This document shows positions 854 to 2,252 of a DNA stretch of 6,498 nucleotides, piece by piece. The notes below the pieces were generated by a model. It did no database searches. It was not told the origin of the DNA and was given only the letters and a program-made list of their open reading frames with translations. The DNA is from a virus (lineage: Duplodnaviria > Heunggongvirae > Uroviricota > Caudoviricetes), in IMG/VR virus record IMGVR_UViG_2706794673_000009, one strand, 5' to 3'. Position numbers and translations under genes: made by a program. Position 1 is the first letter of the stretch. Every line of letters starts with the position of its first letter.

Positions 854-1700
854 TCATCCGTTCTGGCTGACTAAATCCTGTACTTCCCGAACCGTCTGCT
901 CAAAACGTTCAGTCTCCAGCTCAACGCCAATTGCACGACGCCCGAGCGCCAGTGCCGCTTTCACTGTCGAACCCAACCCCATGAAAAAATCTGCAATCAG
1001 GTCACCCGGACGACTGCTAGCGCTGATTATCTGCTGCAGCATTTCTGCCGGTTTTTCGCACGGATGTTTCCCGGGATAGAACTGCACCGGTTTATGCGTC
1101 CACACATCGGTATACGGCACCTGCACCGTCACGCCAAAATACCGCCGCAGATGTTTATATTCACTCAGCAGCTCCGCATACTGCCGGTTCAGTGAGGTAT
1201 ACGTATCCACCAGCTGGTGGTGGAGCTTTTCCAGTTCACCACGCCGATGCTTCTCTTCTGCCACCCGGGCAAACAGCGCCTGTAATTTCAGATAATCGCT
1301 TTCATTCGGCAACTGCCACTGACCGGCACTGAACCAGTGCGACACCATGTTTTTCTTTCCTGTGGCATCTGCAATCTGTTTTGCCGTTATCCCCAGGGCA
1401 GCTCGCGCATCACGAAAGTAAGAAATCAGCGGGGCCATCACATGCTGTTTCAGTGCACTGCCCTTCGCCGCATACCCGGCATCTTTCGGACGATACGGCC
1501 CCTGATAATGTTCCGCGAACAGAATGCGCTCTGTGGCGGGGAAATACGCCCGCAGGCTTTCCTTGTTGCATCCGTTCCAGCGTCCGGACGGCTTCGCCCA
1601 GATAATATGGTTCAGCACACTGAAGCGTTCACGCATCATGATTTCGATATCAGATGCCAGGCGATGACCACAGAACAGGTAAAGACTTCCGGCAGGTTTC
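854..1700 (-). CDS. Beta-class DNA amino-methyltransferase (N6-adenine or N4-cytosine), orphan in this window; N-terminus including the expected DPPY motif lies in the N-run
   Basis: Frame is open from 1700 (edge of masking) to stop TGA at 854-856. Motifs in beta-class order: GSLYLFCG, HIIWAKP, HPCEKP (resembles HPTQKP of M.RsrI-like enzymes), DFFMGLGST (motif I FxGxG) near the C-terminus. No restriction endonuclease candidate nearby. Confidence 0.8.
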
Positions 1701-1998
1701 NNNNNNNNNNNNNNNNNNNNNNNNNNNNNNNNNNNNNNNNNNNNNNNNNNNNNNNNNNNNNNNNNNNNNNNNNNNNNNNNNNNNNNNNNNNNNNNNNNNN
1801 NNNNNNNNNNNNNNNNNNNNNNNNNNNNNNNNNNNNNNNNNNNNNNNNNNNNNNNNNNNNNNNNNNNNNNNNNNNNNNNNNNNNNNNNNNNNNNNNNNNN
1901 NNNNNNNNNNNNNNNNNNNNNNNNNNNNNNNNNNNNNNNNNNNNNNNNNNAGCAGTGGGCCTGAGGTTTGCTTGTGAACCCAACGCATGAGCAGATGG

Positions 1999-2025
1999 CT
2001 GGTGGGTGCCCCTAACACCCACCAG
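1999..2025. other. Perfect 10-bp stem / 7-nt loop hairpin (CTGGTGGGTG-cccctaa-CACCCACCAG) with no adjacent U-tract
   Basis: Directly seen palindrome between the N-run and the terminator at 2041-2068. Confidence 0.8.
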
Positions 2026-2040
2026 CCGCCCATTTACCAC

Positions 2041-2068
2041 AAATAAAAAAGCCTTCACTGCGGAAGGC
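2041..2068 (-). terminator. Rho-independent terminator after the 65-aa ORF
   Basis: Minus strand GCCTTC-cgcagt-GAAGGC followed by TTTTTTATTT. The stem overlaps the ORF stop codon (2055-2057). Confidence 0.6.
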
Positions 2069-2252
2069 GTCTGTAACAACCGAACTGATAGTCTGCCAGA
2101 CCCGCCATAACCAGCTGGGTCAGTATTAACTGGCAGCGTTCGCGTGAAAGGTAAGTATTCTGCGCTATCTCCCCGACTGTCGCCGGTTCGGTAACGCTTA
2201 ATTCATTAAACACCACTCTGGCGGTTTCTGTCATATCCTGCTGTTTTAGCAT
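2055..2252 (-). CDS. 65-aa small protein, probable winged-helix DNA-binding regulator (FaeA/PapI-like pattern)
   Basis: ATG at 2252 with AAGGA 6 nt upstream. The segment TVGEIAQNTYLSRERCQLILTQLVMAGL matches the PapI/FaeA-like signature as recalled (T-x-EIA ... Y-x2-R ... L ... AG). Terminators lie both upstream and downstream. Confidence 0.5.
   Translation of the reverse strand: MLKQQDMTETARVVFNELSVTEPATVGEIAQNTYLSRERCQLILTQLVMAGLADYQFGCYRRLPQ

Follow-up and report, generated by a model that had tools for sequence, protein, structure and literature searches.

A small winged-helix gene and a structured RNA leader precede an M.EcoGII-type adenine methyltransferase gene behind a lambda-like late promoter in a Shiga-toxin-type prophage

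The window analysed here is the whole 6,498-nt stretch of the virus record IMGVR_UViG_2706794673_000009. On its minus strand, between an antiterminator Q gene and a tRNA cluster, lies a cassette of three elements. These are a small open reading frame (ORF) for a winged-helix protein of 65 amino acids (aa) (2055..2252), a structured RNA leader (1913..2036), and the gene for a beta-class N6-adenine DNA methyltransferase that is an ortholog of M.EcoGII (854..1912). An N-run at 1701-1950 hides the N-terminus of the methylase and the 3' part of the leader. The leader is therefore visible only at 2036..1951, and its 3' end is approximate; the methylase is visible at 854..1700, and its start is an approximate placement by frame. 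Across Enterobacterales phages, small ORF and methylase are strictly conserved as a unit. The methylase is already known; the architecture of small ORF, leader and methylase is new, as is the RNA motif.

Pairing of the two genes was assessed in 35 species-level genome loci, found with the motif [RC]CQLILTQL, and in seven phage loci. An M.EcoGII-like methylase gene comes after the small ORF in 31 of the genome loci and in 7/7 phage loci, which bears out the proposal of a preliminary description of this DNA that the two genes belong together. Of the four unpaired loci, one is a contig end, two are degraded copies and one is from Erwinia. Leaving aside the contig end and the degraded copies, the small ORF occurs without an adjacent methylase once in 35 loci, which argues against a mere passenger. 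The spacer between the two genes is always 134-154 nt, even where identity is 41-55% for the small protein and about 60% for the methylase. In the phage collection, small-ORF carriers and methylase carriers are equally numerous among the Stx2c, Stx2a, Stx2, Stx2d and 'Enterobacteria' records. At one locus (L113) the methylase is retained and the small ORF has a premature stop. SfV and mEp460 share an identical or near-identical leader and methylase (approximately positions 3190-3360 of loci L004 and L005), whereas their small proteins are about half identical to each other and 94% and 53% identical, respectively, to that of the window. This contrast implies a recombination joint at a hairpin on the small-ORF stop codon.

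The spacer is a folded RNA leader of about 135 nt, composed of a three-way junction and a hairpin, and its alignment has a nearly invariant core with compensatory changes. Helix P1 pairs UGGGC (2032..2028) with GCCCA, or UGAGC with GCUCA in one species. P2 has 12 bp, formed by GGCUGGUGGGUG/CACCCACCAGCC in E. coli and by GACUGUAAAAGUG/CACCUUUACAGUC in Proteus. One position of P3, a helix of about 10 bp, occurs as C-G, U-A and A-U, and P4 is the hairpin after the junction. Among 36 close sequences, 17 pairs have changed on both sides, compared with 10.2±1.5 after shuffling, and 0/500 shuffles reach the observed number. In a broad alignment of 41 distinct sequences, which was fitted to the covariance model and so favours the structure, 80% of the cells are paired compared with 60% in shuffles, and the covariation score is 0.444 compared with 0.135±0.008 (0/500 shuffles reach it; slid controls give ≤0.10). 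Pairing in the broad set is 99.5% for P1, 86.9% for P2, 75.1% for P3 and 86.5% for P4, with many double-sided changes. RNAalifold independently recovers P1, P2 and P4. Only in the methylase-sense strand do G-U pairs occur, an argument for an RNA of that strand.

A covariance model, R1, was built from the close sequences. It matches the window at 2032..1956 (64.6 bits, E 6e-14), the remainder being masked. R1 also matches 73 of 80 N15-like loci, each match ending on the methylase ATG, and 57/84 VHML-like and other methylase loci. Comparison of the leader with Rfam 15 gave no family at the gathering threshold and, at E≤10, only sub-threshold chance matches, the best being P26 on the opposite strand (24 bits against a cutoff of 36). 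Two additional pairings were considered. A helix P5 beside the start is paired at 79% in the close set and at 53% in the broad set, and is unsupported; R1 carries the outer three P5 pairs out of register, and P5 counts from R1 are disregarded, R1 being adequate for searching. A long-range pairing GGUCA/UGAUC that would mask the start is 93% pairable, with columns so nearly invariant that covariation is silent either way.

The leader abuts the methylase start codon, and E. coli-type cassettes have no canonical Shine-Dalgarno sequence there, only a conserved UGAUCY. In 35 of 36 cassettes the methylase ATG directly follows a GATC within this motif (masked in the window). The sequence GGAUCA near the 3' end of 16S rRNA is complementary to UGAUCY, and the motif could therefore be an unusual ribosome-binding contact. 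N15 is without UGAUCY, and VHML has a normal AGGAAG instead.

The 65-aa ORF has an AAGGA ribosome-binding site 8 nt upstream and is the first ORF after the late promoter and terminator described below. AlphaFold2 predicts a winged helix of order H1-b-H2-H3-b-b with a mean predicted local distance difference test score of 89.2, in agreement with the fold proposed earlier. The PHROG profile phrog_331 (function unknown) matches residues 1-64 at E 1.4e-37. Pfam searches with 20 family members yielded sub-threshold, generic matches only, with DprA_WH and TrmB present in 20/20 (best E 7e-6 and 3e-4). The Com zinc ribbon (PF10122) is not matched by the 65-aa protein, whose matches are to winged helices only; NCBIfam holds no model for it, and a PDB sequence search with the family profile gave nothing meaningful. 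Lambda orf-64, which occupies the same slot after pR', was rejected as a relative (0.3% probability). The family is small (85 representatives in 1.84 billion proteins) and confined to Enterobacterales and their phages. L23 of phiP27 is 100% identical to the window protein. The invariant surface of the family comprises the N-terminus and helix 3, and the wing is variable. Structural neighbours include protein-binding winged helices, namely ScpB, the MotA activation domain and an O-methyltransferase dimerisation domain.

A PapI/FaeA-like signature had been ascribed to this protein, and it did not survive comparison. None of the 20 members (0/20) matches FaeA (PF04703) at E≤10, whereas a PapI control, its sequence checked against PDB 2HTJ, matches at 5.5e-32 (110 bits). 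Profile-profile alignment (hhalign) of the family with PapI gives a probability of 1.4%. PapI is not among the top structural matches of the 65-aa model, and no similarity to it (PDB 2HTJ) was found past the generic winged-helix fold.

The methylase frame runs open from 1699 down to its stop codon at 854. FMGLG, the C-terminal FxGxG motif, is visible in the window, and DPPY is under the mask. The visible part is identical to M.EcoGII at 253/278 residues, and this 91% is a lower bound because the reference was the machine-read sequence in the supplement of PMC11551740. A full-length relative matches PF01555 at 8.9e-44, and the relatives have the beta-class order of N-terminal DPPY, target-recognition domain and C-terminal FxGxG. 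The preliminary description of an orphan beta-class amino-methyltransferase followed by a tRNA is thus correct. Orthology suggests that this M.EcoGII-type enzyme methylates adenine in any context. According to Murray et al. (2018; PMC5778455), M.EcoGII methylates adenine in any sequence context, also acts on RNA and DNA:RNA hybrids, is not expressed in its native lysogen, slows growth when overexpressed, and is presumed to defeat host restriction; phage 1720a-02 is named there as a carrier of a very similar enzyme. A role of the methylase in anti-restriction only, which the preliminary description had kept as a fallback, is the published view of the enzyme family. The same paper deals with the enzyme by itself, and its bioinformatic and discussion sections do not mention an upstream small ORF or a conserved leader.

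The N-run at 1701-1950 is 250 nt long, whereas the stretch between the same flanks measures 257-259 nt in all 76 relatives, 71 of which have 258 nt. Viral contig L038, one of the 76, has flanks identical to those of the window at 529/530 and 847/847 positions. With L038 as proxy, the masked stretch holds the leader and the methylase N-terminus only; the methylase is intact (352 aa, with DPPY), and the tRNAs come next without an endonuclease. No restriction or endonuclease gene lies next to the methylase in any of the unmasked, annotated relatives, so the hidden cognate restriction gene that had been envisaged as the mark of an ordinary restriction-modification system did not appear. The difference between 250 and 258 nt would arise either from masking that does not keep the length or from a deletion of 8 nt in the window copy. 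Such a deletion, if true, would fall in the leader or frameshift the methylase.

Upstream of the cassette lies the gene for a 273-aa antiterminator Q (2477..3298, minus strand), which matches Pfam PF03589 (Antiterm) at E 1.6e-53 and whose relatives are annotated as Q or antitermination protein. Between Q and the small ORF, sequence reading, a terminator scan and likeness to lambda point to a pR'-like late promoter, a short leader and a tR' terminator (2370..2471, minus strand). The promoter has a -35 element TTGATT (2471..2466) and a -10 element TAAATT (2449..2444), with the 9-mer AACGATGGG at 2437..2429, 6 nt after the -10 element. The -10 sequence, the offset and the 9-mer are all the same in lambda pR'. 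The position of the 9-mer is that which we take, from established lambda work, to be the sigma-dependent pause element where Q loads. These lambda-like elements are present although the Q of the window is of the PF03589 family, which presumably differs from lambda's own Q family. The tR' hairpin (2396..2377) is followed by a T-run. A strict sigma-70 consensus scan of 1951-2560 found no promoter, and the assignment therefore rests on the resemblance to lambda. The placing of the small ORF behind a candidate late promoter and terminator, made earlier, is confirmed by the lambda-like pR' elements and the tR' hairpin. The Q gene, the promoter with its pause element and the intrinsic terminator appear together to make up a lambda-type Q-dependent late promoter unit, and late transcription in this prophage would accordingly be expected to depend on Q.

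A second terminator-like hairpin with a U-run lies at 2043..2068 on the minus strand (hairpin 2068..2051) and encloses the stop codon of the 65-aa ORF. It was found by the terminator scan. Enterobacteriaceae-type cassettes retain the hairpin through compensatory changes. It is absent from Proteus/Providencia-type cassettes, and the U-tract is good only in the E. coli/Stx type.

The leader is more widely distributed than the small ORF. N15-, VHML- and Aeromonas-type phages that have no small ORF at that place carry it too in front of M.EcoGII-family genes, and in N15, phiKO2, VHML and Aeromonas phage phiARM81ld it comes directly after the intrinsic terminator that follows the late promoter. In a group of VHML-like loci there are about 150 nt of room between leader and methylase. 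phiARM81ld carries a Com-type zinc-ribbon ORF (L124:2201-2544; PF10122, 1.6e-6) between the leader and the homologous methylase, overlapping the methylase start. A different small protein thus fills the same regulatory slot in this phage and, it appears, in loci L130-L138. In N15, gp51 belongs to phrog_331 (5.7e-28; hhalign probability 87% against the 65-aa family) and adjoins the methylase, gp52, whose annotation seems to miss about 234 nt of the 5' end of the gene. This distribution suggests that leader and methylase are an old core and that the winged-helix gene is an accessory which never strays from it.

All genes of the window are on the minus strand, and DUF968/HNH, RusA and Q, identified by Pfam, precede the cassette. 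Stx2 phages and stx-negative E. coli prophages make up the nearest records; phage 1720a-02 matches the window with 94% DNA identity. In Stx2_EH1910 and phiP27 the 65-aa ORF, a DNA methylase and tRNAs lie between Q and stx2, and many Stx2 phages have the same module at this position. In SfV, mEp460 and the Hafnia and Morganella phages it separates Q from the lysis genes. In the E. coli chromosome closest to the window, three tRNAs, iraM, an esterase and lysis genes come after the module, and stx is absent. The region is best read as a cassette for DNA protection among the late genes of a lambdoid prophage of the Shiga-toxin type, a stx-negative relative of the Stx2 phages in which it forms the opening module of the late operon.

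The tRNA cluster of the window lies at 496..813 on the minus strand, as indicated by the annotation and Rfam tRNA matches of relatives, which have three tRNAs at the site (Ile/Met-CAU, Arg and Arg). Only the 5' part of the first (813..761) is unmasked in the window. ARAGORN found no tRNA in the window because the tRNA genes are masked. Downstream of the cluster, where Stx phages have stx, positions 278-467 of the minus strand give a full-length match to the STnc100 small RNA (Rfam RF02076; 123.6 bits, gathering score 47), as does the E. coli relative L003. A masked stretch at 5323-5533 corresponds in an E. coli relative to hokD and the sok antitoxin RNA (RF01794, 117 bits); near these, the relative carries a two-gene insertion that the window is without. 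Bases 1-99 of the window are the exact reverse complement of 6397-6495, and no E. coli genome searched has bases 1-98 joined to 99-495. An artefact of assembly is the likeliest source of this left-end inverted copy.

The results given above support the identities of the genes, their synteny, the fold of the RNA and the anatomy of promoter and terminators; the function of the winged-helix protein and the regulatory role of the leader are what we infer from them. The reading favoured here, with moderate confidence, is a Q-dependent anti-restriction cassette in which the output of the methylase is set by the leader and possibly also by the winged-helix protein, in a manner like that of Com and Mom. 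In a lysogen, polymerase from pR' would halt at tR' and, in the E. coli type, again at the stop-codon hairpin, and the toxic methylase would remain silent. After induction, Q would render polymerase resistant to the terminators, and the cassette would be transcribed along with the lysis genes. The methylase would then modify the replicating phage DNA, and the progeny would resist the restriction enzymes of the next host. The leader, placed at the start codon of a gene that in the E. coli type has no canonical Shine-Dalgarno sequence, would govern translation of the methylase and set its level. By the logic of Mu Com, the regulator that turns on mom, the 65-aa protein is probably a cassette-specific regulator that acts on the leader or on the late-promoter region.

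Several observations weigh against this reading. The leader occurs without a detectable phrog_331 gene in 123 of 164 distant methylase loci, and in N15 and phiKO2 the gp51 genes (L123:2006-2233 and L126:2003-2230) are upstream of the late promoter and terminator, outside the late transcript. M.EcoGII is active alone both in vivo and in vitro (PMC5778455); since most of the distant loci also do without phrog_331, the protein is dispensable for enzyme and leader. The net charge of the family ranges from -5 in Proteus types to +4, which is odd for a dedicated nucleic-acid binder. Neither P5 nor the start-masking pairing GGUCA/UGAUC has covariation support. Anti-restriction by the M.EcoGII family is assumed in the literature and has been demonstrated for no phage. 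Because the mask is 8 nt shorter than the same stretch in all close relatives, the methylase of the window prophage may not be intact.

Some of the same observations would fit a winged helix that acts through protein contacts, with the methylase, which it might restrain or steer, with RNA polymerase or sigma, or with a host defence protein, the leader being a separate cis-regulator. Many members of the family are neutral to acidic, their N-terminus and helix 3 are invariant and the wing is variable, and the structural neighbours named above include protein-binding domains. The small proteins of SfV and mEp460, half identical, accompany the same leader and methylase. However, M.EcoGII needs no partner for its activity (PMC5778455), and most winged helices of this kind (IclR, MarR, ArsR, SelB, Z-alpha) bind nucleic acid. 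A role of this type is considered unlikely, though it retains some weight. A similarly tentative place is given to a broader proposal, in which the leader belongs to a cis-regulatory RNA class not described before and works as a translational operator that binds protein or as a metabolite riboswitch. It would act as a gate on the non-specific adenine methyltransferases of lambdoid, Stx, N15-like, VHML-like and Aeromonas temperate phages, with phrog_331 as a trans-acting partner and winged-helix analogue of Mu Com.

The leader might instead be a self-contained sensor, either a metabolite riboswitch (for S-adenosylmethionine or S-adenosylhomocysteine, for instance) or a site through which the RNA-acting methylase regulates itself, with the small ORF an unrelated passenger that happens to occupy the first slot of the late operon. 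The leader occurs far more widely than the small ORF and in every case abuts the start of the methylase or of a com-methylase pair, P1 and the junction are nearly invariant in the way of ligand-binding cores, and activity of M.EcoGII on RNA and DNA:RNA hybrids is reported in PMC5778455. This explanation is nevertheless quite doubtful: the leader has no likeness to any Rfam riboswitch, no expression platform is supported by covariation, and the small ORF hardly ever lacks its adjacent methylase (1/35 loci beyond the contig end and the two degraded copies).

A Pap-type switch needs a site-specific, heritable GATC pattern. The preliminary description had suggested for this locus a methylation-coupled switch under Q control, in which a PapI/FaeA-like co-regulator would work with Lrp at methylation-sensitive sites and with the phage's own methylase to produce an epigenetic state. 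The 65-aa protein is indeed a small stand-alone winged helix, as PapI is, its gene is linked to an adenine methylase, and a GATC stands just before the methylase ATG in nearly every cassette. The comparisons with FaeA and PapI all speak against kinship, however, and there is no fimbrial or papB-like context, the relatives all showing a lambdoid late operon. The cassette would be expressed when the cell is near lysis. Because the methylase is at least 91% identical to an enzyme that PMC5778455 describes as non-specific and silent in lysogens, it should be unable to lay down a site-specific heritable pattern, and a switch of this kind is highly improbable. The anatomy, the pairing and the anti-restriction fallback of the preliminary description are retained, and its PapI/FaeA label and epigenetic switch are abandoned. 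A reading as an ordinary restriction-modification system, whose restriction gene would be under the mask and whose controller (C) protein would be the small protein, accounts for a small helix-turn-helix-type ORF upstream of a methylase but has next to no probability, since the unmasked relatives, flank-identical L038 included, have tRNAs next and no endonuclease, and the 65-aa fold is a winged helix, not that of an Xre-type C protein.

The late-gene cassette proposed here bears on an enzyme in wide use. M.EcoGII is a common tool and was the starting point of the SUPREM RNA methyltransferase (PMC11551740), and its natural regulation has barely been described beyond its silence in lysogens. The leader and, in the lambdoid phages of enterobacteria, its obligatory small winged-helix partner offer a testable model of how a genome-wide methylase may be held off until lysis. 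In the many Stx2 phages that have the module between Q and stx2, its terminators and leader belong to the Shiga-toxin transcript. The leader motif is also a candidate for a new Rfam family.

Parts of the region resemble known systems. The Q gene, TAAATT, AACGATGGG at the same offset and an intrinsic terminator recall the pR'-6S RNA-tR' region of lambda, and the same Q/pR'/tR' arrangement precedes stx2 in Stx2 phages; stx genes are absent here, and, unlike lambda, the window phage has a small ORF, a leader, a methylase and tRNAs between tR' and the lysis genes. M.EcoGII and M.EcoGI, from prophages of E. coli O104:H4, are like the window enzyme in being orphan, prophage-borne, beta-class enzymes of about 350 aa, M.EcoGII being ≥91% identical to it over the visible 278 residues. 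M.EcoGII differs from it in having FMGSG in place of FMGLG, and the C-terminal tail of the window enzyme is slightly different. The two protein families are adjacent as well in SfV (orf47-orf48), phiP27 (L23-L24), mEp460 (gp52-gp53) and N15/phiKO2 (gp51-gp52), where the annotation of the pairs goes no further than hypothetical, 'TrmB family' or 'winged helix' plus methylase. With PapI/FaeA, Lrp and Dam, the cassette shares a small stand-alone winged helix and the theme of adenine methylation. It differs from that system in that the protein is not a member of the family, and in that a fimbrial context, a Dam-like methylase and a heritable state contrast with the late operon, non-specific enzyme and lytic timing seen or expected here.

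The com-mom operon of phage Mu is alike in having a late, harmful DNA-modification gene after a small dedicated ORF, with RNA structure at its start (PMC3299994). In Mu-like prophages, too, genes for non-specific adenine methylases come after Com-like genes (Drozdz et al. 2012, PMC3299994); those methylases are alpha-class, whereas the methylase of the window is beta-class. Com is a zinc ribbon whose gene overlaps mom, in contrast to a winged helix encoded about 150 nt upstream here, and the stem-loop of mom is short, whereas about 135 nt make up the three-way junction of the cassette leader.

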